64,000 nt of DNA from a virus. Made by a program: the position numbers and the translations under genes. Below are positions 3,877-35,707 of the stretch, one piece after another; the first letter of the stretch is position 1, and each line of letters begins with the position of its first letter. Under the pieces are notes generated by a model. That model saw nothing but the letters and a program-made list of their open reading frames with translations, was not told the origin of the DNA and searched no databases. Location of the stretch: positions 1 to 64,000 of IMG/VR virus record IMGVR_UViG_3300023184_006193, one strand, 5' to 3'.

Positions 3877-4449
3877 ATGGCATTTAATCTAAGACCATTC
3901 AGAGATTATAGTGAGCATGATGTTGTCAACGTTTTCACTTTCAGTGGTGCATCTGAAAGTTCTGCCGTTGTACTAACAAAGGGCGCTGTAGTCGCAGTAG
4001 AAGGAGCAGGTTTTCAACCACTCTCTACTGGAAATCTAGGAACACCAATTGAATCTTTAGGTTCAGTCGGCGCTTCCTATAACAACACCGTATCAGATCG
4101 TTATGGTTCAGTTGCTAAAGTACGTTTGGCCAATTCTGGTGATCAACCACTTGGCTTAACTCTTATGGACATCCGTGAACTAGATGAAAACGGTGAAAAA
4201 TTAGCTTTCAATCCTCGTAAAGCTGCAGAAATGAATGTTGTAATCAGTGGACAATCTGTACCAGTACTTTCTCGTGGAGTAGTATTGTATAGTGGTGTTA
4301 ACGCTACAGCAGGTCATGTCGCTTATTTGGCTAATGGTGCTGCTGGCAATATAACTGCTAGTGCTACATTACCAGCAGGTGCAACCAAAATTGGCGTATT
4401 CCTCGGAACAGCCATCAATGGTATTGCTCCTCTAAAAATTCAGCTCTAA
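3877..4449 (+). CDS. Capsid decoration/cement protein
   Basis: Small Gly/Ala-rich beta protein between scaffold and major capsid; strong AAGGAG RBS. Confidence 0.6.
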   Translation: MAFNLRPFRDYSEHDVVNVFTFSGASESSAVVLTKGAVVAVEGAGFQPLSTGNLGTPIESLGSVGASYNNTVSDRYGSVAKVRLANSGDQPLGLTLMDIRELDENGEKLAFNPRKAAEMNVVISGQSVPVLSRGVVLYSGVNATAGHVAYLANGAAGNITASATLPAGATKIGVFLGTAINGIAPLKIQL

Positions 4450-4471
4450 TTCTAAAGGAGAAATTTAAAAA

Positions 4472-5578
4472 ATGAAAATCAAACTAAAAAATACCCCAGA
4501 GCAAGTAGAGCTTATCAAAGCTATTGGCAGTAAAGATGCCACAGTAGCTAGAGAAGCTGGCGAAGCTTTTGCCGCTTTCATCGGACCAGTCGTAAGTAAG
4601 GTTCTAATGCAAGCAGGAACAGCTAGCGCAATTTATACTGACGCACCATATGATGAAGATGACTCCCCAAGTCTACCTTTAGATCTATATTATAACGAAG
4701 GCACAGACTACGTTACAGTATGGAGTCAAAATGTAGCTGGTGGTCTACCAACTTCAACAGTTGAAGGCTTCAGTGAACTAAAAGTTTCTACATATCGCCT
4801 AGATACAGCAGTTAGCTTCTTAAAACGCTATGCTCGTCGTGGTCGCATTGATGTAGTTGGAAAAGCAGTAGAGCGCATGAGCAATGAAGTTCTTGTAAAA
4901 CAAGAGCGCAATGCTTGGGCAGTCGTTCTAAAAGCTCTAGCAGAAGCTAGAAGTGCTGGCGCAGTAAGCGCTGGATCAGTTAATCCAGAAGTAACAGGTG
5001 GCCATGTTATTCCAAGTACCTCAGTTGGAACATTCCAATTGGGAGATTTGAATAATCTAATGACCCTAATGAAAAGAATTAATACTTCTTATGCTGGTGG
5101 AACAACTGTTGATACTTATGGACTAACCGATCTATTCGTAAGTCCAGAAGTAAAAGCTGATATTCGTGCTTTCGCATATGCACCAATCATCAATAGTAGC
5201 ACAGCCACAAACTTACCAGATGGAGTTCGTGAAGAAATCTATCGTAACGCTGGAGTTCAAGAAATTTATGGAGTCACAATCCATGAGCTAGTTGAACTTG
5301 GAGTTTACGGTAAATATAACGCTCTCTATCAAGCTCTTAGAGGCTCTCAAACATCAATCGCTGATAATTCAGAGATTTCTATCGGTCTCGACCTCAGTCG
5401 CGAAGGATTTATTCGCCCTGTTGCTCGTCAAGCCGAGAGTGGTGGAACATTCAATGTTCTTCCAGATGATCAATTCGCAACTCGCTCCGAGAAAACTGGA
5501 TTCTACGGATTCCTAGAAGAAGGACGCGTTTGTATTGATGCTCGTACCATCGTTGGTCTAAGAGTTAAGGGTGTTTAA
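4472..5578 (+). CDS. Major capsid protein (HK97-fold)
   Basis: 368 aa, AAGGAG RBS, codon usage suggesting high expression, followed by a strong terminator; canonical position after protease and decoration genes. Confidence 0.8.
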   Translation: MKIKLKNTPEQVELIKAIGSKDATVAREAGEAFAAFIGPVVSKVLMQAGTASAIYTDAPYDEDDSPSLPLDLYYNEGTDYVTVWSQNVAGGLPTSTVEGFSELKVSTYRLDTAVSFLKRYARRGRIDVVGKAVERMSNEVLVKQERNAWAVVLKALAEARSAGAVSAGSVNPEVTGGHVIPSTSVGTFQLGDLNNLMTLMKRINTSYAGGTTVDTYGLTDLFVSPEVKADIRAFAYAPIINSSTATNLPDGVREEIYRNAGVQEIYGVTIHELVELGVYGKYNALYQALRGSQTSIADNSEISIGLDLSREGFIRPVARQAESGGTFNVLPDDQFATRSEKTGFYGFLEEGRVCIDARTIVGLRVKGV

Positions 5579-5608
5579 TTAACTTAAGCAAGACTTAAAC
5601 TTATTAAG

Positions 5609-5645
5609 AAACCCCTAGGAGAAATCCTAGGGGTTTTTTATTTTT
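5609..5645 (+). terminator. Rho-independent terminator after the major capsid gene
   Basis: AAACCCCTAGGA-GAAA-TCCTAGGGGTTT perfect 12-bp stem, GNRA loop, U-tract. Confidence 0.92.
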
Positions 5646-5670
5646 ATTTGTTCCCCCATTTTTAGTTTTC

Positions 5671-5676
5671 GTGTAA
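5671..5676 (+). promoter_or_regulatory. GTGTAA candidate late-promoter element
   Basis: Just downstream of the terminator and upstream of the RBS of ORF 5704. Confidence 0.6.
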
Positions 5677-5703
5677 CCCCTTGTAAGGTAAAAGGAGAAA
5701 AAT

Positions 5704-6051
5704 ATGAAGAAAAAGGTAAAAAATATAGGTGAATTGTCTCAAACTCACGGAAAAACAGAAGAAAAAGAATATAGAACACTAGATCAAATTTGGGGAGATG
5801 ATGGAATCCGCAAATATAAGACTCTAGATGAATCTGAGTATCTTCTTTCATTAAAAGAAATGAATAAGAGCGATTTACAAGCTCACGCTAGTAAGTTTGG
5901 ATTAATTCCAGTAGACGACAGAGAAACTCTTATTAAAAGACTAGTTAAAGAATTTAAAAAACATACTTCTTTATACAACGTACCAAAACAAAAAATTAAT
6001 TATGTTAAATTAGATAAAACTGCTAAAGATGTTTTATCTGAAGGTCGTTAA
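5704..6051 (+). CDS. Hypothetical basic protein with a helix-extension-helix-like segment
   Basis: LKEMNKSDLQAHASKFGL...RETLIKRL resembles Rho-N/SAP motifs; AAGGAG RBS. Confidence 0.5.
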   Translation: MKKKVKNIGELSQTHGKTEEKEYRTLDQIWGDDGIRKYKTLDESEYLLSLKEMNKSDLQAHASKFGLIPVDDRETLIKRLVKEFKKHTSLYNVPKQKINYVKLDKTAKDVLSEGR

Positions 6052-6124
6052 AATAATCATTAAGAAATTAATGATTTGTTTTTAGTTTTTTTAAAAAAAA
6101 TTAAAATTTATTTAGTATTTTTAA

Positions 6125-6165: not shown

Positions 6166-9100
6166 ATGCCAGCAACACCATCAACAGGACAAGTCACAAC
6201 TGGAACATTTTATTTGCAATTAAAAACTGGCATTGGTTTTGCTGAATTAAAAGTAGATGATAGTGGATACTACTCTCAAATAACAAGAGCGTACAGAGAA
6301 AATGCAGCTAATTTTTATCCATATTACCGCGATCAAGGAAGACCAGCTCCTGCTTATTTAACTTCTGGAAATTATAAATATTTAATAGAAAAAAACCGTA
6401 GTACATACACGCTTGATGATCAAGATGGAGGTGGACCAGTTTCTCAAGGTGGAAATGGTGGAATTTTCCCTTATAGTTATGTTTCAGTTAATCTAGGATC
6501 AGACGAAGTTTATATTGGAAAAGGTGCATGTAATACAACAGGAACTTATAGTCCAAGTTCTAATACTTATTATACAGTCGATACAAGAGCAGCTATAGGT
6601 TATGATGATAGAAATAATTTTACTGTAAATGCAACTAGTGGTGGCAAAGACAACTATGGTCATTTTAGTAAAAATATCATAGATAAAAATTCACTTGATG
6701 AAAATAATAACTCTATACTTGGAGGAAATTGTAATTGCATAAGAAATAATGTTATGTCTGTAATCGGTGGCGGTTGTTGTTCTACGATTACATCTTATAA
6801 TAATTATCTTAGTATTAAAAGTAGCAATACTATTGCAGGAGGATATAGAAATAACATTTGCGCAAATAGCTTCAATACTATAGCTGGTGGAACTTGTAAT
6901 TGCATAGGAGGATCGAATAATGCATGTAATACCATTGGTGGTGGATCATATAATGATATATGCGATAATACTTGGGAGAGTGTTATTGCTGGTGGAGTAA
7001 ACAATACAATTGAAAATTCCACACGAGCATTTATTGGCGGTGGCGTAACTAATGCCATAATTTGTAATGCTGGTGGTTCAGTAATTGGTGGTGGTTCTAA
7101 TAATAGCGTTTGTCTTTTTAGTTCTGTTCTTGGCGGAGGTGAGAATAATACCATTACATGTTATCCAAATAGTATTCACGGAGATAGTTTTCTTGGAGCA
7201 GGAAAACTTAATACCGTAAGCGCCACTATGTCTTTTTTTGGTGCAGGATCATTAAATAAAGTTGGAGATTGTGGTGCTGGAGATGAAGCTTATTCTTCTT
7301 TGATGGTATTAGGTGGTGGTTGCTGTAATTTCCTTTTAGGAAATGGCCCTAGTATGATAGGAGGATTTGGTAATGAAGCCGTAGGCAATAGAATAGTAGT
7401 TGGAGGTGGATACAAAAATAAAATTGGTCATACTACAATAGATTATTGGAGTAATGCTTCGTGTTATGCTGCATTAATGAATAGAGACCAACTCCCAGAT
7501 GCAGCAGTAATTGGTGGTGGACAATTTAATTGTATTGTAAATGGTGGTTGTGTTGCATCAATTTTAGGCGGAGCACAAAATAGAATTGTAAGTGGAAATT
7601 ATAGCTCTGTATTAGGTGGTTTTTATAATGAAATACATGGAGCAACAGATTCATTTGTTATTGGAAGTAGAGGTACTATAAGTGGCTGGGATTTCACTGG
7701 AGTTGGCGGAATAAAAAGTGGATACGCTTTTAGAGGAGCAGGTTTAATAACTGATGGTCTTAGTAGAGCATTTAATCCAGAATCATTTGCATTAAATTTA
7801 AACTTTACAAACGGAGTTATATTAACTCCACAAATTAATCTAAGAACTGTAACTTATGGTCCAAATAATTTATTAGAATCAGTAGGAATGGAAACAGGAT
7901 TCGTAGGAAACAGAAGAGGTGTTTATTTTGGATATACTGGCGGAAGACTTGTCGCTGATACAGAGGGTAATTTAAAAAATATTCAAATCGGAGATCTTAA
8001 TCATGTTGTTCCATGGATAGATTATTCTGGTGATGCACCTGGAACAAAAACATTTATAAGAAGATATAATCCTGCGATTACAATTGGAAATTTAAATCAT
8101 GGTGGTTATGAAAATATTTTAATAGGAATTCAAAATGCAGCCTTGTTCCAAAAATTTGAAGATGCAACTGGCATTGTACCAAGTGGTGGATATGTTGGTT
8201 CAGGAGCATTAAGAACAATACCTAACGCACAAGGACAACGCACTCCATGGGGATATCCAAATGATACTTGGCCATATTTCCAAGGAAGAAATGTTTTAGT
8301 TGGACATTTCAATACTTCCACGGGTACAAGAAACGTAATATATGGTATTCAAAATGAAGCATTTGATACATCAAATGATAATATATTAATTGGTAATAGT
8401 AATGCAATCATAAGACAAGGAGTAAGATATTTTACTGGAGTATCTGGAGTTGTTACTGGAATATTAACTCCAACAGGATTTAATGGTTTTAAGAGTTCAA
8501 ATGTTTTAGTAGGTATAGGTCAAGTTGAACAAGGTGGTTTTCATTCTATATTATTAGGTTTAGGAAATCAAGGAACACAATCTTATGGAGCAGTGATTGG
8601 AATAGGTAATACTAACTCTGGTACAAAAAATTATACATTTGGAGGCAATAATACTAATTTAGGTCAATTTAGTACTGTCTTAGGAAATACAAATACAATT
8701 CTTGATATTTCTGGATCAGTAAATAATGTAGTTGGTTATTATAATCTAATTCAAGGTACAGGAACAAATTTTGTATCTACTCTTGGTGATCGTAATTTTA
8801 TAACATCTGCAGTTAAAGGTTTAGTTTTAGGTGGAGAAAATGAATTAGGACCAACAACTTCAACTCTAGCAATTGGATTTAAGAATACAGTTTTTGCATC
8901 AGATTCTAATATAGTTGGTTCAAATAATTTTGTATTTAGTGGCAATAATAATTCTTACAATAATTCAATTATTTTTGGAAATGATAATGTAAGCTCAAAT
9001 ACTGAAGTAGGAATTTTTGGTCATAGTAACTGGGGCACGAGTTATAAATCATATATCTTAGGAAGCTCAAATGTTACAACTAGTGAAGCAAGTATTGCTT

Positions 9101-9666
9101 TAGGATATAAAGCAAAAACTAGAAATTATGGTGAATTAGCATTTGCTGCTGGACCAATAGCTTCAATAAGAGAAGGATCATCTCAAAAAACTCAATTAAT
9201 TTGGAAAGGAATTACAAGTGGAAATTCTCTCGTTCCTCAAGAATTAACATTAGATGGAGTTTATTCTAGTGGAAATTATACTTCTGGAAAAGCATTTTTA
9301 AGATCTGGTCATATTTGGAATGGCATATTAAATGTAGTAGCTTCTGAAACAGGACTAACAAATATTAAAACAGAAACAAGAAATATTACAGCGATAAATA
9401 GAAATAATTCATTAATAGTTGTAAATGATCAAATTACTAATTCTGCTTCATATGGAAGTCCGACATGGGGATTGTCAGTATCTGGCGACAGCACAAATAG
9501 AGCTCTAGCAATTAATGTAACTGGTGCATCTAATAAAATTATCCTATGGAATGTTGTTGGTGAATTTAATCAAATGTTTGTGCCAACTTCTGAAATAGTA
9601 AATAGATACGAATTTATCAATGGAACATTAATAAATAATGTTGTCAAGAGTGGTACTAGTTTATAA
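6166..9666 (+). CDS. Large fibre/adhesin-like virion protein with beta-roll (YadA-head-like) repeats
   Basis: Many ~14-15-aa xxIxGGxxNxI and xxxIGxxN repeats; ASIALGYKAKT YadA-like motif. Confidence 0.65.
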   Translation: MPATPSTGQVTTGTFYLQLKTGIGFAELKVDDSGYYSQITRAYRENAANFYPYYRDQGRPAPAYLTSGNYKYLIEKNRSTYTLDDQDGGGPVSQGGNGGIFPYSYVSVNLGSDEVYIGKGACNTTGTYSPSSNTYYTVDTRAAIGYDDRNNFTVNATSGGKDNYGHFSKNIIDKNSLDENNNSILGGNCNCIRNNVMSVIGGGCCSTITSYNNYLSIKSSNTIAGGYRNNICANSFNTIAGGTCNCIGGSNNACNTIGGGSYNDICDNTWESVIAGGVNNTIENSTRAFIGGGVTNAIICNAGGSVIGGGSNNSVCLFSSVLGGGENNTITCYPNSIHGDSFLGAGKLNTVSATMSFFGAGSLNKVGDCGAGDEAYSSLMVLGGGCCNFLLGNGPSMIGGFGNEAVGNRIVVGGGYKNKIGHTTIDYWSNASCYAALMNRDQLPDAAVIGGGQFNCIVNGGCVASILGGAQNRIVSGNYSSVLGGFYNEIHGATDSFVIGSRGTISGWDFTGVGGIKSGYAFRGAGLITDGLSRAFNPESFALNLNFTNGVILTPQINLRTVTYGPNNLLESVGMETGFVGNRRGVYFGYTGGRLVADTEGNLKNIQIGDLNHVVPWIDYSGDAPGTKTFIRRYNPAITIGNLNHGGYENILIGIQNAALFQKFEDATGIVPSGGYVGSGALRTIPNAQGQRTPWGYPNDTWPYFQGRNVLVGHFNTSTGTRNVIYGIQNEAFDTSNDNILIGNSNAIIRQGVRYFTGVSGVVTGILTPTGFNGFKSSNVLVGIGQVEQGGFHSILLGLGNQGTQSYGAVIGIGNTNSGTKNYTFGGNNTNLGQFSTVLGNTNTILDISGSVNNVVGYYNLIQGTGTNFVSTLGDRNFITSAVKGLVLGGENELGPTTSTLAIGFKNTVFASDSNIVGSNNFVFSGNNNSYNNSIIFGNDNVSSNTEVGIFGHSNWGTSYKSYILGSSNVTTSEASIALGYKAKTRNYGELAFAAGPIASIREGSSQKTQLIWKGITSGNSLVPQELTLDGVYSSGNYTSGKAFLRSGHIWNGILNVVASETGLTNIKTETRNITAINRNNSLIVVNDQITNSASYGSPTWGLSVSGDSTNRALAINVTGASNKIILWNVVGEFNQMFVPTSEIVNRYEFINGTLINNVVKSGTSL

Positions 9667-9704: not shown

Positions 9705-9712
9705 TTTATTAT

Positions 9713-10087
9713 ATGGCAACTTCATATAATATAAGCACAATTCAAGGCGACAATTTACAAATAACTCTTTCTGTAAAAGATCAATATAATACTCCAGTTA
9801 ATTTAAGTGGATACGATGTAAGAGGAGTTGTTAAATATGCTTATGGTTTTACAGGATTATCTGGACTTATAGTTGATTTAGCGCCAGTTATTAATAGTGG
9901 AGTAAATGGCTCGCTTTATGCTTCTGGATTTATAAATATAAATATTCCATCATATACAATGACAACTATTCCAGTAGGTTCATTTGTTTATGATATCGAA
10001 AGATTTCCAGAAGGAATTCCTACTGGAAATTCTTTAAAATTATTAAGAGGAAAATTTATTGTTAGTCCAGAAGTTACAAGTTTTTAA
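9713..10087 (+). CDS. Small fibre-attachment/adaptor protein (BppU N-terminal-like)
   Basis: IQGD...VKD...VNLSGY...YDIE...LLRGKFIVSPEVT pattern of small beta-sandwich proteins preceding phage fibres. Confidence 0.55.
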   Translation: MATSYNISTIQGDNLQITLSVKDQYNTPVNLSGYDVRGVVKYAYGFTGLSGLIVDLAPVINSGVNGSLYASGFININIPSYTMTTIPVGSFVYDIERFPEGIPTGNSLKLLRGKFIVSPEVTSF

Positions 10088-10090: not shown

Positions 10091-12805
10091 ATGGATGAAA
10101 TCAATGTTGACGTTATTGTTTCAAATGGAACGAATGTTGAAGTCAATTCGCCGTCAACATCTGTAAATGCTTTTGTAAATTTACCACCGCCATTACAATC
10201 AACTACAGATTCTCCATCAATAGATTATAATGCTCACGTTATTCTTCCTGGTCCACAAGGTCCTCCAGGAATACAAGGTCCAGTTGGACCTCAAGGCCCA
10301 CAGGGAAATATTAGTGGAATTAATGATTTAAATGCTCAACTTATTTATTTGAGTGGACAAGATGGCGTTAATATATATACTGATAATTATAATACAATTT
10401 TTATATCTGGAAATAGTGGATATTTTCAATCTCTTATAAATACAACAAATAATAATTTAAATATAACTGGTAATACATTAGCTGCAGATCTTTTGACTAC
10501 TGGAATTACGCTTCAAACTAACATTAATACGGTTGCATCGAATTTAATTACGACTGGAAATACTCTATCTACAAACCTTGTTTCTACTGGTAACTTTTTA
10601 AGTAAAAAAATAGATGATTTAAGTGGCGTCTCTGTTCTTACATATGGAAATCAACTAATATTAGGAAACAAAACTTTTAATGGCAATACAATTATTAATA
10701 ATCTTACTATTACTGGAACTGAAACTATAGTAAATACATCAGTACTTAATGTGGCTAATCCATATCTTCTTTTAAATATATCTGGTGGAGCATCAGATGG
10801 TGGAATATTCTTTGTTACTGGATCTGGCTTAACAGGTATAAATGATGCTGGCCCAATCATAGGATTTGATCATAGTAATAAATTTAAATTTGGAATAAGC
10901 ACAAGAAATAGTGATCTTTCACCTTTACCTGATATTGCATCCGTACAAGATATTATTGCTTATAGTGGGGTAGCAGATAATAAATTTGCAACAATAATTA
11001 ATTTAAACTCAACTGGAAACGATTTACAAACTCAGATTAATACTCTTTCTAATAAAGTTATTTATACCACTGGCAATCAAATTAAAAGTGGTCGTTTAGC
11101 AATTGGTGATACTATACTAAATGCAACTAATCCATATACATTAAGTCTCCAATCAAATAATCAAGATACATTTTTAGAAATTTTAAATAGTGGTGGAGCA
11201 GGCAAAGGTGCATTTTTTGGCATGAATGAAGATAGGCTTGAATTATATAATTATCAAGGTGGAGATATATTATTCTTAACTTCAGAAAATGTAAGCGAAG
11301 GCATTGAGAGATTGTATATAAAAAACAACGGCAATATAGGAATTGGAACAAATATACCTTCTGAAAAACTAGAAGTAGCTGGAAATATAAAAGCGAATAA
11401 TTTAGTATACAATACTGGTAATCAAACTATTAGTGGTGATACAACTTTTATTGATAAAATAAATATTAAAGCTATAGATGGCTCTTCTGTAGGATATATT
11501 GAAGGAACTAGCTTTGCTAACTCTCATCAAACCTTAAAAATCCAAACAGCGGGTCAAGATGAAAATTATATTGAAATAAATTCGGCTCAAAACAGCATAA
11601 ATCTTGGGGAAGATCTTTTTAATATTACAAATAATAATGGAACTTTAAATTTTAATTCTACTTATGATGAAAATATTGCTATAAATGGAACAAGAAGTTT
11701 ATCAGCGGATAATATATCAGCTTCTTTTAAAGAGGTATTAGTTAATAATAGAATAGATATTAAAGCTTCAGATGGCGAACTTGTTGGATTTATTTCTGGA
11801 GAAAGTAATTCTGGATCTACTCAAACACTAATAATAAATGGATTTGGTGGCACAGACGAACAAAATGTTAGAATACAATCCGCTGGAAATTCAATTCAAT
11901 TTGGTGAAGCTAATTTTACTATTACAAATAATAATGGAGTTTTAAATTTTAATGGCGGAGATGATATTTATATAAATAATACAAGAAATTTAGTTGGAAG
12001 TAATATATCAGCTTCTTTTAAAGAAGTCTCTGCTAACAATTTAGTTTACAATACTAGCAACCAAAACATATCTGGAATTAAAAATTTTTACTCTAGACCA
12101 ACATTAAGTGGTATTGGAGTTTCATTAATTGGTGAAGTTAGTGATAATTTAGTATATACTACTGGAAATCAAACTATAAGTGGAATTAAAACTTTTGCCA
12201 CAGGAGTATTAATTTCTGGTAATCTCCAAGTTTTTAATACTGGTATTTTTAATGGTCTTAATTTAAATAACATTGATGCTCTTAGTTTGTCTGGAGTAGA
12301 TATAAATATTGCAAGTGGAAATGTGAATTTAACAAATCGTCCAACTGTAAATGGCACTGGCGTACTTTTAAGTGGACAAAATAGTTTTACAGTTTATATG
12401 CAAGTTACTAATTCTAATCCTGTTAATGACAATATAAGCTATTTTAATAATCTTCCAGGCGGTCCAAGTACTCTTAGATCTAGTAAAATATTTCAAATTG
12501 GAGAAACATGTATAGCCAGAAAAGCTTCTTGGAATCAATACTTAGATACTTTTACTGGTATTCCAAACCAAAATGCCACTGGATATTTTATTAACGTATC
12601 GACTAATAGAACAGGAATAATAAGCACAGTAATTAATGCTACTACAGCTGGTATATCAGGTTTTAGTTATTTTGGACAAATAATCCCTAATATCGCAGTA
12701 GGTGAAACAGATTATGTTGTTTGTGGATTAAAATGGGGAAATTATACACCAGGTTTTCGTCCCTCTGGTTGGAGAGCTGGAGTTAATATATATTGTTATA
12801 ATTAA
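10091..12805 (+). CDS. Tail/head fibre protein with a collagen-like segment and internal repeats
   Basis: (GXY)7 at ~10250-10312; GNIGIGTNIPSEKLEVAGNI fibre motif; LVYxTGNQTISG repeats. Confidence 0.7.
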   Translation: MDEINVDVIVSNGTNVEVNSPSTSVNAFVNLPPPLQSTTDSPSIDYNAHVILPGPQGPPGIQGPVGPQGPQGNISGINDLNAQLIYLSGQDGVNIYTDNYNTIFISGNSGYFQSLINTTNNNLNITGNTLAADLLTTGITLQTNINTVASNLITTGNTLSTNLVSTGNFLSKKIDDLSGVSVLTYGNQLILGNKTFNGNTIINNLTITGTETIVNTSVLNVANPYLLLNISGGASDGGIFFVTGSGLTGINDAGPIIGFDHSNKFKFGISTRNSDLSPLPDIASVQDIIAYSGVADNKFATIINLNSTGNDLQTQINTLSNKVIYTTGNQIKSGRLAIGDTILNATNPYTLSLQSNNQDTFLEILNSGGAGKGAFFGMNEDRLELYNYQGGDILFLTSENVSEGIERLYIKNNGNIGIGTNIPSEKLEVAGNIKANNLVYNTGNQTISGDTTFIDKINIKAIDGSSVGYIEGTSFANSHQTLKIQTAGQDENYIEINSAQNSINLGEDLFNITNNNGTLNFNSTYDENIAINGTRSLSADNISASFKEVLVNNRIDIKASDGELVGFISGESNSGSTQTLIINGFGGTDEQNVRIQSAGNSIQFGEANFTITNNNGVLNFNGGDDIYINNTRNLVGSNISASFKEVSANNLVYNTSNQNISGIKNFYSRPTLSGIGVSLIGEVSDNLVYTTGNQTISGIKTFATGVLISGNLQVFNTGIFNGLNLNNIDALSLSGVDINIASGNVNLTNRPTVNGTGVLLSGQNSFTVYMQVTNSNPVNDNISYFNNLPGGPSTLRSSKIFQIGETCIARKASWNQYLDTFTGIPNQNATGYFINVSTNRTGIISTVINATTAGISGFSYFGQIIPNIAVGETDYVVCGLKWGNYTPGFRPSGWRAGVNIYCYN
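11456..12024 (+). repeat. Tandem duplication of a ~95-aa module inside the fibre gene
   Basis: INIKAIDG...TNNNGTLNFN...NISASFKEV versus IDIKASDG...TNNNGVLNFN...NISASFKEV; exact 24-nt DNA repeat TAATATATCAGCTTCTTTTAAAGA at 11710 and 12001. Confidence 0.8.
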
Positions 12806-28000: not shown

Positions 28001-28008
28001 AATAGAAA

Positions 28009-31000
28009 TTAATTCCCTGCATAGCCTCCTACAACATTTATGCCTCCAGTTAATACAAACGATGGAGGAGCTTGTTGACTTAATGTAATTGAAGATGTTA
28101 TTAAATTAGATCTTTCTTCATAAGGGTTTACCGCTTGTACACCAACATACCATGTTCCTATTCCAGTTGGAGTGAAGAAAAATGGTAAATTACCACTAGA
28201 CGTAGGTAAGGCAAGACCTTGATTTCTTAATGGAGAAAGTGGGGCATCAAATAAATCTTGATCTAAAATTTGACCAGCTACAAATGGGCTATTAAACCTT
28301 CTGTACATATTATAGAATGATACTACTCCAGAATTATTTGGAGGAGTAATAGTATATGCAATAGAATTAATTCCTCCTTGATTTGATGTATATGCTGGAA
28401 ATGCTCCATTTAATCCATAATTTCCAGTAGTATCTCTATATAAAATACTTAAAGTTAAACTAGGATCATTCGGTTGAGGTATTTTAGTTGGAACAGATAT
28501 TAGAGCTTCACCAGTAACAATATCTGTATATTTTTGATCCACATATTTAAGAGCAGTTATATTATATGATTCATCTGTTTTTTGATTAATATTCGTTATT
28601 CTATAAGACTCTAGATCATTCAAATATCCTTCTAAGTAGTATCCAGGATATAGTAAATTATTTGGATTATTTATTCCATATCTATTTGATATATTACCAG
28701 AATAGAGCGATGGATCATAATCAAATGTCCAAACTGTATTTTTTGGTAATGAATATCCACTAGATCTTAACGCTGTTGGAAATGAAAATGCAATATATCC
28801 AGTATATTGACCTGTTCCTTGAGATATGTAATTTTTAGGATTATTAATACTAATATTTTGAATTTGAGATCTTCTAAAAAAATCAGAATTTAATCCAGTT
28901 ACTCCGCTAGAGGTTTGACTATATCCAGTTATATATAAATTACCTAAGTATGTTCCATAATCTAAATTATAACTTGGCGTTAAAAATTTAATATCTAATG
29001 GATTAACCGACCCAGTTATTGCTAATAAAGTATTAGCATTATATGGTACATCTAAAATTGCATAACCAGTAGTAAGTTCTAAAGTCCTCCCTGCAAAATT
29101 TTGATATTTTTGATTTTGATCGTAAATTTTTATTATATCACCTGGTCTTAAAAAAGCCCCATCTAGACCAACCTCAAAATCAACAGTTTCTGTTTCTAAA
29201 TTTTCTGTTGTTAAAAACCATCTTCCCATTCTTTTTGCTTGGCTTCTTTTTGTAGCCCCGAATGCGCTAATTTCTACTTCTCTAATTCCATATTTTAATA
29301 AAGCTGATCTATCTTCTACGTATTCTACAGCTGGTAAATAATTATTATTTTCATCATTATATCTAACCAACGCAACAGATCTTCTAGCTTTCTTTGCACT
29401 GCTTGAATAATTAAATTCTCCGTTTTTAACATTACTATTATTAAATAAATAAATTGAATCCTTTGGCCGATCTTGATTTATAAATAATTGTCCAGCTGAA
29501 TAATATAATATTCCATTAAATACAGAAGCCATATCATCTAGCATTTTTGATGCTTCTTGTTTAGACGAAATCAAAACATTACATGTAAATCTTGGCTCTA
29601 AACCACCAAAACCATCAGGAACAAGTTGATCACAATATTGAGATATTTCATATAATGTCCATTTATCAGTTAAATTCATGTCTATATATCTTCCTAATCC
29701 AAAACGATTATTAGTTATTAAATCATACAAACACCAAGCGGGATTATCTGTCCAAGCTAATTTAAATTGACCATTCCATGGCCCGCTATAGTTTTTAGTA
29801 ATTGGATTGTAATTAATCGGAACTTTAACTTTTAATAACTGCATTTTATATTTTCTATTTGGAATTTCTGTAAAATATTTTGCATTGAAATTATTATAAA
29901 CCATTGCTGTATTTGGATAAGTGAATTTATTTGGATATACGAAAGTTATACTATCTACAGTAGTGCTATTGCTTCGTGCAGCTTGACTAAATTCTGAAGT
30001 AACTTTATTTAATTCAAATGCCCAACCGATTTGATCTGGCATTAGATCTATAAAATATCCATTTTCCGCAGTAGGTCGAAGATGAAAGGTATAATGAATT
30101 AGAGTAGGATTATTTTGTATCTTTCCTCTAACATAAAATGTATCTGAAGAAAATAATCTTGGATTAGTTGTTGGAACAGTTATATTTGGCACAGCTACTA
30201 CTTCTTTTCTATCGGAAAAAACTCTCCACAATCTAACTCCAAATTGAATCTGATCGGGTGATACTGTTCCAGCGTAAGCGCCAGAAATAATGGCGCCAAA
30301 TAAATTATTAACTATTACATTAATTCTAATAGATTCTACTTCTGTATTATAAATATAATATTTTTTAGTTGGAACTAAACCAGAAACTGTTCCGCTATAA
30401 AAAAATGGTCCATATAAAGTTTCTCCAATATTTTTTGTTACAGCTGTTTTTACTGGATATTTATTTCTATCTACAAGATATCCATCATAGTGATATCTAT
30501 CTTCATAAAGATTTATTCTTGGAGAAGAAACTGTATGATCATTTGTTGCGCCATAATCATATCTAAAGTTAATAAATCTAAAATTTAATAATCCTTCTGT
30601 TGTAGCTAATGGAGTTTCATTCCAAAATACAGATCTTGCTTCTGGAGGTACAATAATTGTTGGATCAAGTTGGGAAGAAAATCCTATTCCACCCGTAACA
30701 AAAGGACTAAATGAAACGCTAGAATAACCTATATCTCCAACATTTTTTCCACTAACACTATAAATATAACTACCAGTTACAAATCCTTCAATTGGTCCTT
30801 CTGAAATAATATCTATAATAGATGCATTTTGGATTGTATATACTGATATATTTTCCATTCCAGTCGAGAATAATTTATACTGCTCTCTATATGGTACTGA
30901 ATCTTGTATATCGTAAGCGGTTCTTAATTTAGGCGTATTTGCATTATATAATGCTAATTGATCTGCTCCTCCTCGACCAACTCCACCTTCATTTGGATGT

Positions 31001-31329
31001 CTAGTATCCCAGTGAAACCTAGTGGCTCCAGAGTAATATATATTAAAAGGATACACAAGAGGTAGTCCAGTTGATTGCCAAAACCAACCAGTTTGATCTA
31101 ATATTGGGCTTCTTGCTGCAATTATTCCACTCATTCCATAAGTTAGAGTTGCTTGCCACATTGGTAGCCCCCACCAATCTATTCCACTAAATAGTAAGGT
31201 ATGATTACCACCTAAATGATTAGCAGCTAAACTATCTGGAAATTCTGGGTTTCCCCAAATAAATCCCATGTTATTGACAAAATCAATTCCATGAAATCCT
31301 TCTGACCATTGATTGGGATTGCCTGGCAT
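28009..31329 (-). CDS. Central tail fibre / host-specificity protein (lambda gpJ-like)
   Basis: DIISEGPIEG, KVKVPxNY...WNGxFKLAWTDNPAWCLYDL...RFGLG, LYEISQYCDQLVPDGFGGxEPRFTCN, LRPGDII. Confidence 0.92.
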   Translation of the reverse strand: MPGNPNQWSEGFHGIDFVNNMGFIWGNPEFPDSLAANHLGGNHTLLFSGIDWWGLPMWQATLTYGMSGIIAARSPILDQTGWFWQSTGLPLVYPFNIYYSGATRFHWDTRHPNEGGVGRGGADQLALYNANTPKLRTAYDIQDSVPYREQYKLFSTGMENISVYTIQNASIIDIISEGPIEGFVTGSYIYSVSGKNVGDIGYSSVSFSPFVTGGIGFSSQLDPTIIVPPEARSVFWNETPLATTEGLLNFRFINFRYDYGATNDHTVSSPRINLYEDRYHYDGYLVDRNKYPVKTAVTKNIGETLYGPFFYSGTVSGLVPTKKYYIYNTEVESIRINVIVNNLFGAIISGAYAGTVSPDQIQFGVRLWRVFSDRKEVVAVPNITVPTTNPRLFSSDTFYVRGKIQNNPTLIHYTFHLRPTAENGYFIDLMPDQIGWAFELNKVTSEFSQAARSNSTTVDSITFVYPNKFTYPNTAMVYNNFNAKYFTEIPNRKYKMQLLKVKVPINYNPITKNYSGPWNGQFKLAWTDNPAWCLYDLITNNRFGLGRYIDMNLTDKWTLYEISQYCDQLVPDGFGGLEPRFTCNVLISSKQEASKMLDDMASVFNGILYYSAGQLFINQDRPKDSIYLFNNSNVKNGEFNYSSSAKKARRSVALVRYNDENNNYLPAVEYVEDRSALLKYGIREVEISAFGATKRSQAKRMGRWFLTTENLETETVDFEVGLDGAFLRPGDIIKIYDQNQKYQNFAGRTLELTTGYAILDVPYNANTLLAITGSVNPLDIKFLTPSYNLDYGTYLGNLYITGYSQTSSGVTGLNSDFFRRSQIQNISINNPKNYISQGTGQYTGYIAFSFPTALRSSGYSLPKNTVWTFDYDPSLYSGNISNRYGINNPNNLLYPGYYLEGYLNDLESYRITNINQKTDESYNITALKYVDQKYTDIVTGEALISVPTKIPQPNDPSLTLSILYRDTTGNYGLNGAFPAYTSNQGGINSIAYTITPPNNSGVVSFYNMYRRFNSPFVAGQILDQDLFDAPLSPLRNQGLALPTSSGNLPFFFTPTGIGTWYVGVQAVNPYEERSNLITSSITLSQQAPPSFVLTGGINVVGGYAGN

Positions 31330-31333
31330 AAAA

Positions 31334-32131
31334 TTATACTAGATAGCTACTTGATTGACTTATCAAGTGCAATTGTTCATTGAAATAATTTTGAAATCCA
31401 TAATAATTATTTTGTAAAAATCTGACATCACTTTCATTCCATATAACTGATCTTTTATTTGCAACGTAAGTATTTTCATAATAAACATTCGCAGCAACAC
31501 TACCTACCATTAAAGTACCATATCCTACTGGAACAGGTCCACCCTCTCCAACTAAATTAACTGGTCCATTAAAAAGATAGGATTGTGGTCCACCTAATAC
31601 GCCTTGACCATCTCCAATCGAACCTTGATTTGCTGTTGTTGCTTGTTGAGCTTGAAATGGAATCTTTGGCGGTGGTTTAGACAATAGTCTAGTAACTCCA
31701 TCGGCAATTAAAGCTATGCCAGCAACAATTGCAGCTGGAGCTAAAGCTTTAGGTAAAGGATTCCAACTTTGTCCAGCGGTAGCCCCTGCTGCTACAGAGC
31801 CTATTCCACCAATAACTTCAGCATAACCCCACCAATCGTTCCAACCTGCACCAACAATACTTGGTATTAAATCAATAGATTTTAATTGGTTTTTTTTATA
31901 TACACAAAACATTTCTGATTCTGGTATTTTTAATGGATCATTTGGAATATCTAGTATTTTCTTATTCAAAACAATATGATATTCATAATTTTTATTATCA
32001 ATAATCCATTTTCTTAATTTTCTAGTATTGGCTTCTATGGCTCTAAGAGCTTCATTGACGCTAGAGACTTCAAGATTCCATTCTTTTCCAATATCTTCAC
32101 CTAATTTACCATGTAAAGTTATTTTAACCAT
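31334..32131 (-). CDS. Tail assembly protein I (lambda gpI-like)
   Basis: ITLHGKLG...EALRAI, IPSIVGAG, SYLFNGPVN...GGPVPVGYG. Confidence 0.9.
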   Translation of the reverse strand: MVKITLHGKLGEDIGKEWNLEVSSVNEALRAIEANTRKLRKWIIDNKNYEYHIVLNKKILDIPNDPLKIPESEMFCVYKKNQLKSIDLIPSIVGAGWNDWWGYAEVIGGIGSVAAGATAGQSWNPLPKALAPAAIVAGIALIADGVTRLLSKPPPKIPFQAQQATTANQGSIGDGQGVLGGPQSYLFNGPVNLVGEGGPVPVGYGTLMVGSVAANVYYENTYVANKRSVIWNESDVRFLQNNYYGFQNYFNEQLHLISQSSSYLV

Positions 32132-32135
32132 ATAT

Positions 32136-32465
32136 TTATTTACATTTAAAATAATTAAATTGATCCTGTTTTATATTATATAAAACCATATCTAACATTA
32201 AATAATTTGCACAAGATTTATCTAATCCACTAAATTCATTATTATCAATAGTGTGACTATGGTAGATATATAATATATTATAGTTGTGTTTAATATTTAA
32301 AAAATCTCCTATAGAAATTTTAAAAAAATTATTTTTTTGTTTGGATATATTTTTAGTTTTAATGCATTTTATTTTTTTATTATCTTTTACTATAAAACCA
32401 CAGCATTCATTAGGGAAATCTTCTAATGCATGTCTTTTAATGAAATTTTTAATTGTATTTTTCAT
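32136..32465 (-). CDS. JAB/MPN domain protein (lambda gpK N-terminal domain only)
   Basis: PNECCGFI...YHSH...FSGLD JAMM motif; 109 aa with no NlpC/P60 domain. Confidence 0.88.
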   Translation of the reverse strand: MKNTIKNFIKRHALEDFPNECCGFIVKDNKKIKCIKTKNISKQKNNFFKISIGDFLNIKHNYNILYIYHSHTIDNNEFSGLDKSCANYLMLDMVLYNIKQDQFNYFKCK

Positions 32466-34312
32466 TATTGAATTTGATCTAATCCAGGAAATCCTCCAAA
32501 TGGAAGAAATCCATTTAAATATTCTCCAGTAACATCTTCTGGTAAACCATGAGCATAATTATTCCAAGGATCATGAACATCTGGTCTTCTTGGCCAAGAA
32601 GCTGGGCTTCCATCTGTTAAAGCGCTTCCAGTTGCATACCAAGATGGAACAACGAGTCTTCTAAAATCACCTCCTGGTCCAGCAGCTTGATATCCAGTAA
32701 TTCTATATCTTCTATAAAAGCTCCAATAATCCCAACCTCCTCTTGACATTGGCCAAACTACTGGTCTAAAATATGGATTTTTTTGCCATCTTAATCTACA
32801 TGCGTTTATAGTCTTGGAGCATGTATCTGCACCCCAAAATTTTCTATTTGGTGGATTGTTAAAAACATCTGATGTATGATTCGTTAAACATACAAAGTAA
32901 TATTTAATTCCATGATTTTGTAAAAATACAAAATCTCCAGTTTGATAAAAAGCTCCAGTAACCCAATCTCCACTATCGCCAATTCTAAATTGTCCACTAA
33001 AATTTAATTCACTTAACGCGGTTCCTGCGTTAGAGGTAGTAGATATTAATCTCCAATTGGGCCAAATCCCTCTAGAGGGAAAAGTTATTTTATATGTTCC
33101 AGCTGCGCTACCATTTAAATTCCATGCTAATGGATATCCACTAATATCAACAACTGGATTCCAAGATGAGGCTATATTGCTATAATATTGAATTTGATAA
33201 TTATTATTAATTGTAGAAGTAGAACTAAGTGAAACTTGAGTTACTTCTGCTTGTATTGGGCCACTTAATTCTATGATTTGTTGAGCTGCATTTGAAGTAA
33301 CTGCGGTGACAGCAGTATTATCATTATTCAAAGCGGCTGCGCACTGAGCAGATGTCCCTGCGTTTAATGTATAATTTGTAAATGTCCAATTTGCCCAATT
33401 ATTATTTCCTGTATGTCTAAAATAATTAAATCCTGAAAATCTTTGTCTTGATTGAACTCCACTTAAAATTGTATTTAAAAATAACTCATCATTTTCAGTT
33501 GCAACTGGAGGAGCTTCTAGCGGAAGTGTTATTCTTCTATCTGGATTTGAGACGGATCCGTAAACTCCACTATGAATTGGATCTATTCTTTTATTATATT
33601 CATATAAACATCCTTCTCCTCTATATTCAAATGGACATTTATTAGCCAAAAGAGTTCGTCCTGGTAAAGTTAGATTTTCTAAATCTAAAATTGATACCAG
33701 GTTATATTGAAGGGTATTTTTATTTTCTAATTCTTTTCTATCCACATAATAAATATCTCTAGGTAATTCTATTTCTGTTATGGATGGGTCATCTGAATAT
33801 GGATTATAATTACCAGAAAAATTTAATGGATCTAAATATTTTAAAAAAGTCCTAATTCTTGTAAATTTTCCACCAATAATATCTCCTAATGATTGGACTT
33901 GCATTCTTATATATTTATAAAATGAATTGGTATTATTATCTGGCGAATAATTTGTTAAAGTAAGTTGTGGAGTTGGCAATGTTCCTACAGAAACATAATC
34001 GAAACCTTCAGCAACCATTGGGAATGGATAGTAATAATTATTTTGCCAATATATTTGGCCTTTATCAAATGAACCATTAGTTAAATTAAATAGATTAAAA
34101 TTATTATGACATCTTAAAATACCATTTTGCATTGGCTGACCGCTAGTATTAATATATCTTATTTGTGGATATATGTCACTTAAATCTAATTCATATAAAT
34201 AAATTGGAGTCGTTGGAGTTATGCTACTTAATTCTGTATTTAAAGAATTAGATCCACTTGTGATTGTATTAAAAACTTGAATCGCAGGAGATGATCTTGT
34301 TGGAAGTGGCAT
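32465..34312 (-). CDS. Minor tail protein L (lambda gpL-like) with large insertions
   Basis: RIRTFLKYLD, CPFEYRGEGC, DTCSKTINACRLR, PFGGFPG; four Fe-S cysteines. Confidence 0.9.
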   Translation of the reverse strand: MPLPTRSSPAIQVFNTITSGSNSLNTELSSITPTTPIYLYELDLSDIYPQIRYINTSGQPMQNGILRCHNNFNLFNLTNGSFDKGQIYWQNNYYYPFPMVAEGFDYVSVGTLPTPQLTLTNYSPDNNTNSFYKYIRMQVQSLGDIIGGKFTRIRTFLKYLDPLNFSGNYNPYSDDPSITEIELPRDIYYVDRKELENKNTLQYNLVSILDLENLTLPGRTLLANKCPFEYRGEGCLYEYNKRIDPIHSGVYGSVSNPDRRITLPLEAPPVATENDELFLNTILSGVQSRQRFSGFNYFRHTGNNNWANWTFTNYTLNAGTSAQCAAALNNDNTAVTAVTSNAAQQIIELSGPIQAEVTQVSLSSTSTINNNYQIQYYSNIASSWNPVVDISGYPLAWNLNGSAAGTYKITFPSRGIWPNWRLISTTSNAGTALSELNFSGQFRIGDSGDWVTGAFYQTGDFVFLQNHGIKYYFVCLTNHTSDVFNNPPNRKFWGADTCSKTINACRLRWQKNPYFRPVVWPMSRGGWDYWSFYRRYRITGYQAAGPGGDFRRLVVPSWYATGSALTDGSPASWPRRPDVHDPWNNYAHGLPEDVTGEYLNGFLPFGGFPGLDQIQ

Positions 34313-34313
34313 A

Positions 34314-34856
34314 TTATACTGGAACCTCTTGTAATTTAATTTTTATTGTATAATTATTATAAGAATTATAATTTACTGTCCAGGATGGGGCTGTAAATCT
34401 TGTATTAAAATTTGTTTTACTGTAAATCGTTGGAACATTGTAAACAAATGAAGTTTGCGCGTTCATTTGATTTAAAAAATGCAATATAGAGATTGCTTCT
34501 GGTTCTTTTCTGTTTTCAAAATTAGCGTCAAAACCTACTAAGTTTGTATTTATTCCATCTGGTACTCTTTGTTGGTATCCATTACCAAATGTCATTATTT
34601 TTACTCTTGGCTCGAGAGATATTGATGTTTGGTAAGATGGTTTCCAGAAGAAATTCGGAACTAAAGTATTATTAATACTTATATATCCATCCCATTCTAC
34701 TTGAAGATTGGCTGTCGAGGTTGGGTTGTTTGCTACTCCAATATTATTATTTATAACAGAATAATAATATCTACCATTAGATCCAGAAACTATATTATAT
34801 TTAATATAATTAACTGTACTAGACCAGCCAGAAACTGTATCGTATATACTTGCCAT
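34314..34856 (-). CDS. Minor tail protein M (lambda gpM-like) with an N-terminal extension
   Basis: FFWKPS...PRVKIMTFGNGYQQRVPDGIN. Confidence 0.88.
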   Translation of the reverse strand: MASIYDTVSGWSSTVNYIKYNIVSGSNGRYYYSVINNNIGVANNPTSTANLQVEWDGYISINNTLVPNFFWKPSYQTSISLEPRVKIMTFGNGYQQRVPDGINTNLVGFDANFENRKEPEAISILHFLNQMNAQTSFVYNVPTIYSKTNFNTRFTAPSWTVNYNSYNNYTIKIKLQEVPV

Positions 34857-34877
34857 AACCTTATACCTTTTAAATAA

Positions 34878-34900
34878 TTACACTTGTTTTAATGGTGTAA
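34878..34900. promoter_or_regulatory. Back-to-back divergent GTGTAA elements
   Basis: TTACAC at 34878-34883 (minus strand, towards M) and GTGTAA at 34895-34900 (9 nt before ATG 34910). Confidence 0.75.
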
Positions 34901-34909
34901 TTATATTAA

Positions 34910-35707
34910 ATGGCTATCTTTTCTTCTAAACAAAATCAAAATATTTATTTAAATGGACAGTTTGTATCTGGAGTTCAGTCTTTAGGGGTATCTTATGATA
35001 CCAATATAGTGCCTTCTTTAGCTTTAGGCGATACTGGATTTAATTATCTTGTTAATAATCAAAATAAATCTTCTATAAGTTTAGAGTACGTCCCATCAAA
35101 TATTGATCCAATTCTTTCTTTTACTGGAGAAAATATAATAAGTGGAATGTTGGGATATGCTGATAAATATATAAATTTTAATAGTGGTTATTTAACTAGA
35201 TATAATATTAAAACTTCTATTGATAATCCTGTAGTTTGCCGTGCGGATATAGATGTTTATGGTCAATTTGGAGAACAGACTGGAATAAGAAATAATAATT
35301 CAATTAATTATAATATAACTCCATATGATCTATGTTATACTGATATAACTTTTAACGAAGTCCTAACAAATAGATTGATTTCTTTTGAAATGAATATATC
35401 TACTAGCCGTATTCCTCAGTATGATGTAGGCCAATATTATCCAAGCGAAGTTCTTGTACAATATCCTATAAGAATAGATTTTAATTTTGAATTAGATATT
35501 GATAATTATATTATGCCAAATATAAAATCATTTTTATTAAACGAAGATATAAGATCTATGCGAATAAATTTTAAAAATTATTCTACATTAAATAACGTAT
35601 TATCTTTTAATTTTGATAATATAGTTAAAAACAATGAAAGTTTAAATATAAATGTTTCTGAAAACGGAAAAGCTTCTATTGCGTTTTCCACTTATATATT
35701 GAGTTAA
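34910..35707 (+). CDS. Second tail-tube-fold protein (baseplate tube / minor tube paralog)
   Basis: Collinear similarity to 16232..17371, e.g. SFEMNISTSRIPQYDVG..VQYPIRIDF versus SYTLSFDLARTPIQKLG..IDFPLTVTL. Confidence 0.65.
   Translation: MAIFSSKQNQNIYLNGQFVSGVQSLGVSYDTNIVPSLALGDTGFNYLVNNQNKSSISLEYVPSNIDPILSFTGENIISGMLGYADKYINFNSGYLTRYNIKTSIDNPVVCRADIDVYGQFGEQTGIRNNNSINYNITPYDLCYTDITFNEVLTNRLISFEMNISTSRIPQYDVGQYYPSEVLVQYPIRIDFNFELDIDNYIMPNIKSFLLNEDIRSMRINFKNYSTLNNVLSFNFDNIVKNNESLNINVSENGKASIAFSTYILS

Follow-up and report, generated by a model that had tools for sequence, protein, structure and literature searches.

Why should several unrelated tail proteins of one phage be crowded with serine or threonine followed by glycine? 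The question is raised by a 64,000-nucleotide stretch of low-G+C DNA (~29%) from an uncultured lake phage (IMG/VR record IMGVR_UViG_3300023184_006193, positions 1 to 64,000), which is referred to here as the window. A first-pass annotation had proposed that these Ser-Gly and Thr-Gly pairs, collectively [ST]G, are the attachment sites of a phage-encoded O-glycosylation system that covers the virion with a dense glycan shield. The underlying observation is borne out, and it reaches beyond the window to a large group of phages. The premises of the proposal also hold, including the enrichment, its asymmetry of order, a soluble set of sugar and glycosyltransferase genes, and the presence of GT9-like genes in or beside the tail blocks, but they do not establish a glycan shield. 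Glycosylation is not needed to explain the pattern. On balance, we lean towards the view that the pairs reflect a lineage-specific swap of Ser/Thr for Asn/Asp at turns that end β-strands.

Order-specific enrichment in outer tail proteins

Fifty-nine open reading frames (ORFs) of the window were counted for [ST]G and for the reversed pair, G[ST], and each was compared with 2000 shuffles of its own sequence, a procedure that preserves the amino acid composition of each protein. All seven hand counts made in the first-pass annotation proved to be exact, and the five runs it quoted (e.g. FTGVSGVVTG and VTGSGLTG) were all found in the sequence. Six of the seven proteins are enriched:

10091-12805, + strand: tail fibre, 904 amino acids (aa), the most enriched protein ([ST]G 39, G[ST] 12); phrog_5073, PF18338
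28009-31329, − strand: gpJ-like central tail fibre / tip protein, 1106 aa ([ST]G 28, G[ST] 7); phrog_31 (E 1.1e-138), PF13550 (Phage-tail_3; 77.9 bits, cut-off 23)
32465-34312, − strand: gpL-like minor tail protein, 615 aa, with a long C-terminal extension ([ST]G 16, G[ST] 10); PF05100 at residues 82-244
15311-16174, + strand: 287-aa protein of the structural module ([ST]G 7, G[ST] 1; z 2.9); zero Pfam or PHROG matches
34910-35707, + strand: conserved 265-aa protein adjoining the tail-tip genes ([ST]G 6, G[ST] 0; z 2.9)
9713-10087, + strand: 124-aa protein directly upstream of the fibre gene ([ST]G 6, G[ST] 2; z 2.7); phrog_1084

For the seventh protein, a tail-tube candidate at 16232-17371, the count (10 and 7) was correct but is not significant (z 1.1). 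Three proteins are individually significant, namely the fibre (19.0 [ST]G expected, z 5.35, with none of the 2000 shuffles matching it), the gpJ-like protein (14.2 expected, z 4.15) and the gpL-like protein (z 3.5), whose sites are mostly C-terminal to residue 244 (13 of 16). The three small proteins reach z 2.7-2.9. Pooled, the six carry 102 [ST]G pairs against 49.0 expected (2.08 times expectation) and 32 G[ST] pairs against 48.2. Because the shuffles keep composition, the asymmetry of order is not a composition effect, as had been argued.

The signal is also visible without selection of proteins. In the 23 ORFs with start positions from 3877 to 34910 (10,328 aa), Ser-Gly (SG) ranks first of the 400 dipeptides, with 111 occurrences against 75.2 expected (z 4.6); Thr-Gly (TG) occurs 79 times against 65.0 (z 1.8) and Gly-Ser (GS) 57 times against 75.1 (z −2.4). 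There is no SG excess in the 36 ORFs outside this range (27 against 30.9 expected). Enrichment is not general among structural proteins, and the other 17 structural ORFs hold 88 [ST]G pairs against 91.0 expected (0.97 times). Proteins that exhibit no excess include the following:

4472-5578, + strand: capsid-like protein, used as comparator ([ST]G 3, G[ST] 8); its features score 0.97-0.99 to Mu GpT-like and major-capsid clusters, which is a lead
19748-26518, + strand: 2256-aa protein, used as inner-tail comparator ([ST]G 26, G[ST] 30); probably the tape measure, judged by its size and position
6166-9666, + strand: Gly-rich protein of 1166 aa with 177 Gly, many Cys and repeated G-G-x-x-N-x-I-like rungs ([ST]G 34, G[ST] 26); probably a β-helical spike, with zero matches in Pfam and PHROG comparisons

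The lack of enrichment in the capsid-like protein had been recorded in the first-pass annotation, and because of it there is no indication of a shield that covers the entire virion.

Within the six enriched genes, the DNA words A[GC]TGG occur 71, 1 and 0 times in frames 0, 1 and 2, respectively. A motif at the DNA level is ruled out because these words stand in the coding frame only, and the signal is therefore at the protein level. Codon use before Gly in these genes is nevertheless strongly skewed. In this position 33 of the 57 Ser codons are AGT, compared to 45 of 228 at other positions; for Thr, ACT supplies 38 of the 45 codons before Gly and 97 of 218 at other positions. TCA and ACA are nearly missing before Gly (2 and 6 occurrences), and T-ending codons prevail. 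This preference looks like avoidance of Shine-Dalgarno-like A-GGA junctions, and it leaves the amino acid pair unexplained.

Spread of the excess among relatives and controls

The fibre family exhibits the excess most uniformly. In 120 homologous fibres the median z is 7.9 and 97.5% of values lie above 3, with a total of 7212 [ST]G pairs against 3233 expected and 3277 reversed pairs. In the gpJ family, z has a median of 2.7 across 120 homologues and lies above 2 in 67% of them. Values from −1.1 to 1.1 are seen in the nine matches that are weakest (P0112-P0120) and that cover 45-70% of the query. A wider set of 159 loci (L001-L159) from viral contigs comprises 1945 ORFs. The 93 members of the 34910 family in these loci carry 488 [ST]G pairs against 228 expected and 160 reversed pairs. 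Dipeptide ratios for classes of families were taken from every third locus ORF of each group. By this measure [ST]G stands at 0.84 times expectation in the families of the 2256-aa protein, the gpK/I/M-like proteins and ORF 26519, at 0.85 times in the four gene families around the GT9-like gene described below (35704, 36532, 37712 and 39634), and at 1.27 times in the replication enzymes. Giant gpJ fusions are found in some relatives. Two of them (L054:3577-12288 and L055:3325-12069, both + strand) are proteins of ~2900 aa with 113 and 115 [ST]G pairs (z ~10-11). Another, the gpJ-like ORF of 4575 aa in L080, has zero excess (74/95).

A universal property of fibres is ruled out by the cultured phages lambda (J and Stf), T4 (gp34-37), T5 (pb1) and PSS2. 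The [ST]G and G[ST] counts are 13 and 17 in lambda J, 18 and 22 in T4 gp34, 27 and 31 in T4 gp37, and 19 and 25 in T5 pb1. Likewise, the pieces of lambda Stf yield z values of −0.7 and 1.6, the PSS2 fibres 0.3 to 3.0, and the HTVC008M proteins at most 2.9. The fibre of HTVC010P does reach 1.9 times expectation (19 [ST]G pairs against 9.9). This 35-kb phage has 64 annotated genes and zero annotated glycosyltransferases, and a two-fold excess can therefore arise without such enzymes.

Conserved sites resemble turns at strand ends

Hydrophobic residues are over-represented around the 102 sites of the six proteins, occupying positions −3 (52%), −1 (56%) and +2 (51%) relative to the Ser/Thr, compared to a background of 35%. 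The resulting motif is hydrophobic-x-hydrophobic-[S/T]-G-hydrophobic or Asn. Read from the sequence, this alternation is that of a strand ending at the Ser/Thr residue. The signal for proteoglycan xylosylation, in contrast, is Ser-Gly with acidic neighbours. No acidic flanks of that kind were found at the 102 sites, where Lys, Arg, Glu and Gln together make up 6% of residues at −1 against a background of 13%.

The gpJ-like protein is 38% identical to lambda J over 356 aa. As had been noticed earlier, its motifs fall mostly outside the lambda-like core (residues 427-765), which contains two of the 28 sites (515 and 754). Across 109 homologues with 42-89% identity, thirteen of the 28 persist as [ST]G in at least 66 sequences and in up to all 109, and the Gly at these sites persists in 92 to 109. 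Ser and Thr interchange freely (e.g. 67 Thr and 42 Ser at site 185). In 33 non-redundant homologues the gpJ excess is confined to ~17 conserved columns, and elsewhere the count matches expectation (375 against 375.7). The alignment of the 34910 family has four conserved [ST]G columns; outside conserved columns the ratio is 1.18 in this family and 1.29 in the gpL family.

Of the 39 fibre sites, 14 are embedded in six-residue contexts found again in 12 or more of 119 homologous fibres. In addition, copies of Q-x-I-x-G-x-K-x-F in the 120 homologous fibres have [ST]G at that place in 306 of 469 cases. Residues 684-704 of the fibre match BppL_N (PF18338) with 42 bits against a cut-off of 25.8. This Pfam family is named after a lactococcal phage baseplate protein, and the match was counted in favour of a structural reading. 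A comparison of the fibre with the PDB by sequence gave a 'cell wall surface anchor' repeat as its sole match. Near the N-terminus, residues 53-72 (10247-10306) form a short collagen-like Gly-x-y run (G-P-Q-G-P-P-G-I-Q-G...), which directly precedes a region rich in L-x-x-T-G-N-x-L at spacings of 11 and 18 residues.

The residues that replace the pair are informative. Where Gly is kept (1801 alignment cells), Ser/Thr is lost in 291, and Asn is the commonest replacement (28% against a background of 8.4%). Where Ser/Thr is kept (1828 cells), Gly is lost in 318, and Asn is again the commonest replacement (93 of 318). Exchange of Ser/Thr with Asn/Asp, and of Gly with Asn, is the pattern of Asx/ST-turns and of left-handed positions. 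Such a turn followed by Gly at the end of a β-strand is known from the type I turn with a G1 bulge and from related hairpin motifs. The phage sites share with these a side-chain oxygen donor (Ser, Thr, Asn or Asp) followed by Gly or Asn, conserved positions and the same exchanges, and probably also a location where a strand gives way to a loop. They differ in that this phage group uses Ser/Thr almost exclusively over Asn, at about twice the chance level and in many unrelated tail proteins, whereas model phages prefer Asn and Asp.

Equivalent sites are present in lambda J. At the three alignable conserved sites lambda J reads Y-S-G (515), V-D-G (185) and V-D-G (772), where the gpJ-like protein of the window reads Y-S-G, V-T-G and I-T-G. 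In a structural model of the latter (mean predicted local distance difference test, pLDDT, of 65), 11 sites lie in blocks with pLDDT of at least 70; none of these is inside a strand or helix, and eight are at the edge of one. The first-pass annotation had named β-turns as an outcome that would speak against its proposal. Conserved columns, Asn substitution and the S-G and D-G equivalents in lambda J point to turns, and we infer the conformation of the Gly.

Totals for the whole class of capping residues were compared with those of 17 tail proteins from five cultured phages, in which Asn-Gly (NG) stands at 1.43 times expectation, Asp-Gly (DG) at 1.31, [ST]G at 1.18 and the sum of the four, [STND]G, at 1.26. 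For 28 gpJ homologues the values are 0.70 for NG, 1.62 for [ST]G and 1.25 for [STND]G. Because the class total of gpJ equals that of the controls, with NG down and [ST]G up, an ordinary structural slot appears to be filled by another residue. In 30 fibre homologues NG falls to 0.54 (z −10.5), [ST]G rises to 2.2 and the reversed G[ND] stands at 1.23. DG is 1.02-1.05 in the gpJ and fibre homologues.

These features suggest a simple model. A small hydroxyl residue would close a β-strand, and the next residue, a Gly in a putative left-handed conformation, would start a loop or bulge. Tail proteins of model phages over-use a capping residue plus Gly too, mostly as Asn-Gly and Asp-Gly, and the same slot would be filled by Ser or Thr in uncultured low-G+C aquatic siphophages. 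On this model, fibre modules that bear the motif have multiplied and spread between fibres as well.

Glycosyltransferase and sugar genes

Any role for glycosylation depends on the enzymes that the window encodes. The relevant regions are as follows:

12844-13713, + strand: candidate second GT9-type donor-lobe protein, 289 aa, directly 3ˊ of the fibre gene (a lead)
36532-37710, − strand: GT9-like protein, 392 aa; PF01075 (36.5 bits, cut-off 22)
37712-39640, − strand: 642-aa protein with a weak GT1-type stretch; PF00534 (E 2.3e-5, below cut-off)
51057-63921, − strand: sugar-nucleotide and glycosyltransferase cluster, from profile matches

Of about nine glycosyltransferase genes proposed previously, five have Pfam support, comprising three of type GT2 (53117, 54773 and 55562), the GT9 gene at 36532 and a weak GT1 at 37712. 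The gene described as lying inside the structural module is probably 12844-13713, whose identity as a glycosyltransferase is a lead. By features it scores 0.98 to viral clusters with PF01075 in 15% of their members, and the D-S-x-x-x-H-x-A motif of the GT9-like family is aligned by hhalign at a probability of only 5.6%. The protein has zero Pfam matches.

The 392-aa protein has 286 homologues, and its family occurs in 512 stretches of viral contigs. Its model (pLDDT 91) places the nucleotide-sugar-binding (donor) lobe of heptosyltransferases at residues 1-186, with Z scores of 18.1 to 3tov (root-mean-square deviation 3.1, 178 residues aligned), 17.7 to WaaC, 17.6 to WaaF and 16.0 to TibC. Overall, these matches have deviations of ~3 Å over 150-178 residues, and other GT-B enzymes reach Z 12.7 at most (Foldseek was also used). 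Only residues 1-186 align to GT9 structures. By sequence, neither this protein nor the 642-aa protein gave anything useful against the PDB. Specifically, a phmmer search with the 392-aa protein of all PDB chains did not match TibC even at E values up to 10, and the two are 12% identical in the structural alignment. No four-cysteine iron finger was found in a 51-sequence alignment of the family, in which Cys-11 is nearly invariant and no cysteine is invariant. The model also shows no N-terminal β-barrel: it starts with a helix and an α/β domain, residues 1-186 already being the catalytic C-lobe. Because it lacks the barrel, the four conserved cysteines and a TibC sequence match, the protein falls outside the TibC/AAH family.

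At its residues 530-587, the 642-aa protein weakly resembles the N-terminus of heptosyltransferases (positions 3-59 of the RfaQ model at residues 530-586, E 7.6e-4; a further weak E-value is 6.3e-3). The genes 37712-39640 and 36532-37710 are joined by TAA-T-ATG in different frames, and their families co-occur in ~90 loci. Because an N-lobe-like stretch ends the 642-aa protein and the junction is so tight, a GT9 fold split over the two adjacent genes is taken as a lead.

The cluster at 51057-63921 encodes a GDP-mannose 4,6-dehydratase, a Polysacc_synt_2-type dehydratase, an epimerase/reductase and the three GT2 enzymes, together with methyltransferases, a cupin isomerase, a small haloacid dehalogenase (HAD) protein and a nucleotidyltransferase-kinase fusion. 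Its part at 58644-63159 (− strand) holds a mannose-6-phosphate-isomerase-like cupin, a HAD of 117 aa, a nucleotidyltransferase fused to an APH-like kinase, and a GatZ-like protein, all far below cut-offs. A heptose pathway was considered for these genes. For the cupin, the matching models are those of mannose-6-phosphate isomerase, and the small HAD is better matched as Cof-type than as GmhB; a heptose donor is not supported, because the pathway matches are all far below cut-offs. No multi-pass membrane protein was found among the ORFs of the window, each of which has at most one hydrophobic segment.

The enrichment of gpJ at first appeared to track the presence of GT9-like and GT1-like homologues within 10 kb, an association that was ruled out by checking whole contigs. 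Five loci scored as negative for glycosyltransferases (L031, L033, L035, L037 and L039; gpJ z −1.1 to 0.4) share contigs with the GT9-centred loci L106, L136, L104, L112 and L138, and a GT9-like gene is present in three of four whole records searched (L047, L049 and L073). One relative, a 48.6-kb record rated 31% complete, has neither a GT9-like gene nor enrichment. The first-pass annotation had suggested checking whether related phages with different glycosyltransferase sets differ in their motifs. The GT9-like gene is found as well in relatives with non-enriched homologues of gpJ and 34910. The contigs that combine a non-enriched gpJ with a GT9-like gene still hold [ST]G-rich giant genes beside it (z 8.2-10.3).

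Two known systems invite comparison. The heptosyltransferase TibC modifies Ser-313 and Ser-322 of TibA, the former within Q-N-S-G-G, and leaves Thr unmodified (PMC4358343). Compared to TibC/AAH and their substrates TibA and AIDA-I (PMC4358343, PMC3835316), the phage genes share with these systems a soluble GT9-type catalytic fold and an enzyme gene that adjoins putative substrate genes. They would also share an acceptor Ser, Ser-Gly at one TibA site, that starts a loop between two strands of a β-rich surface protein. The phage protein differs in lacking an N-terminal β-barrel, the four-cysteine iron finger and detectable sequence similarity to TibC; moreover, its GT9 fold seems to be divided between two genes, and the sites have Thr as often as Ser. 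Virion glycosylation has also been reported in mycobacteriophages (PMC12363180, PMC12582341). In Che8, Corndog and Myrna, phage-encoded glycosyltransferases are reported to modify the phages' own virion proteins, a likeness that here extends to the presence of glycosyltransferase genes. The capsid is stated to be glycosylated in those phages (PMC12363180), whereas the capsid-like protein of the window is not enriched. No report of a Ser/Thr-Gly attachment rule in phages was found in the literature searched.

Alternative explanations for the Ser/Thr-Gly excess

Several results weigh against the strand-end turn account. Values of z > 3 occur for [ST]G in 180 of the 1945 locus ORFs, compared to 3 for the reversed pair, and reach 14, which is far stronger than in any control. 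The top value among 20 lambda, T4 and T5 proteins is 3.2 (T5 pb4), with the T5 polymerase at 3.1, and that in the marine phages PSS2, HTVC008M and HTVC010P is 3.4 (the HTVC010P fibre). The 180 ORFs comprise 101 that are unassigned, 34 of 110 in the gpJ family, 35 of 93 in the 34910 family, 6 of 107 in the gpL family and four others (two DnaB-like, one RecA-like and one of the 6166-9666 family). The top-ranked unassigned ORFs are long, and Pfam comparison of eight of the most enriched locus ORFs gave weak TIG matches in three and nothing else. Furthermore, GT9-like genes adjoin [ST]G-rich genes, and an ORF with z of 5 or higher is present in 32 of the 79 loci centred on GT9. The [STND]G total of the fibre family (1.58) lies above the control value of 1.26, and the gpJ model is of middling confidence (pLDDT 65; predicted template modelling score 0.42). 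Turn formation also does not say why Ser/Thr replaced Asn/Asp; AT pressure should, we infer, favour Asn codons. A rival reading is that the pairs are acceptors for phage-encoded protein O-glycosylation, comparable to the activity of the heptosyltransferases TibC and AAH. A soluble enzyme of GT9 type, perhaps the products of 37712-39640 and 36532-37710 helped by that of 12844-13713, would recognise strand-loop-strand elements of folded tail proteins in the cytoplasm, and the cluster at 51-64 kb would supply donors or extend the glycan. By analogy with TibC/AAH, this would be a new O-glycosyltransferase with its fold split over two genes and folded β-rich substrates. We judge this unlikely, though it has a real chance of being right. 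It gains from the donor-lobe fold of residues 1-186 (Z 16-18), from GT9-like genes that adjoin the tail-tip genes and, as a lead, directly follow the fibre gene, from nucleotide-sugar genes and at least five glycosyltransferase genes in a window with zero multi-pass membrane proteins, from the restriction of the enrichment to outer tail proteins, and from the precedents of the TibA Ser-Gly serine and the mycobacteriophage virions. However, Asn, which is unable to carry an O-glycan, freely substitutes for Ser/Thr at the sites, and lambda J has the same turns in a phage without such enzymes. The gpJ protein exhibits neither turnover of sites nor excess outside conserved columns, and GT9 presence fails to predict enrichment of gpJ or of the 34910 family. 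The 392-aa enzyme lacks the defining features of TibC/AAH, Ser and Thr interchange here while TibC modified only Ser, and the HTVC010P fibre attains its excess with zero annotated glycosyltransferases. Finally, GT9 enzymes normally act on lipopolysaccharide cores, so that these genes could just as well serve to modify the host envelope.

Two further explanations were considered. Ser/Thr might have replaced Asn before Gly because Asn-Gly is the fastest-deamidating protein sequence, such that long-lived particles in lake water were selected for chemically stable turns. This is favoured by the order-specific loss of NG in fibres, where GN is not depleted, by the lesser NG deficit of gpJ with DG near expectation, and by the abundance of NG in control tail proteins. 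Unassigned locus ORFs of at least 500 aa likewise have NG at 0.46 times expectation compared to GN at 0.92, and deamidation that alters capsid function is documented for other viruses. Yet adjacency of Asn and Gly is avoided whichever comes first (NG and GN 0.53-0.71 times expectation), even in enzymes of the loci such as those of replication and of the glycosyltransferase block. Because both orders are depleted in enzymes, most of this avoidance is genome-wide and not virion-specific, and only the extra order-specific NG shortage in fibres can relate to the virion. Asn-Gly avoidance in phages was not found in the literature searched, and we consider a contribution of selection against deamidation distinctly improbable. 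A by-product of composition, low complexity, a DNA motif or chance is extremely unlikely. The skewed codon use before Gly is the observation that would favour it, but the shuffles keep composition, the reversed pair is depleted, the DNA words occur in frame only, SG is first of 400 dipeptides, and the sites are conserved in more than 100 homologues with Ser and Thr interchanging. For practical purposes, an artefact is excluded.

If the pairs are turns only, their interest lies in comparative protein chemistry, in that one phage group fills with Ser/Thr a universal structural slot that model phages fill with Asn/Asp. They would also serve as a warning against taking a dipeptide excess for a modification signal. 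If instead some of them carry sugars, they would represent the first attachment rule for virion glycosylation beyond actinobacteriophages and giant viruses, and it would be located on the receptor-binding proteins of abundant aquatic phages. A widespread group of uncultured aquatic siphophages would then sugar-coat its host-recognition apparatus with glycans from its own pathway, with bearing on host range, particle survival and the purpose of large glycan gene clusters.

Gene layout and relatives

Structural genes on the + strand span ~3.9 to 26.5 kb and are followed by a lambda-like tail-tip block on the − strand with gpM-like, gpL-like, tail assembly and gpJ-like genes. In addition to those described above, this block includes the following:

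34314-34856, − strand: gpM-like gene; PF05939
31334-32131, − strand: tail assembly protein; phrog_32

The neighbours of gpJ are thus of gpM type (PF05939), gpL type (PF05100) and gpK/I type (phrog_32), as expected of a lambda-like tail tip. The tail-tip genes (gpM, gpL, the assembly protein, gpJ and a 493-aa ORF; within 19748-34856) converge on the large gene for the 2256-aa protein on the opposite strand, which differs from the single operon of lambda. After the tail-tip block come the two glycosyltransferase-like genes at 36532-39640 and then replication genes encoding a DNA polymerase III alpha subunit, an exonuclease, a PD-(D/E)XK nuclease, a primase, ThyX, DnaB and a RecA-like protein. 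At the other end of the window, 2-973 and 980-1606 (+ strand) encode a BspA-type leucine-rich-repeat protein (PF13306, E 3.6e-57) followed by a homologue of pesticin-like phage lysozymes (PF16754).

A search of a cultured-phage collection gave zero matches for the fibre, the GT9-like protein, a TIG-repeat fibre or 11 kb of DNA, and distant matches only for gpJ and the polymerase. Relatives in metagenomes number in the hundreds, on contigs of up to ~160 kb.

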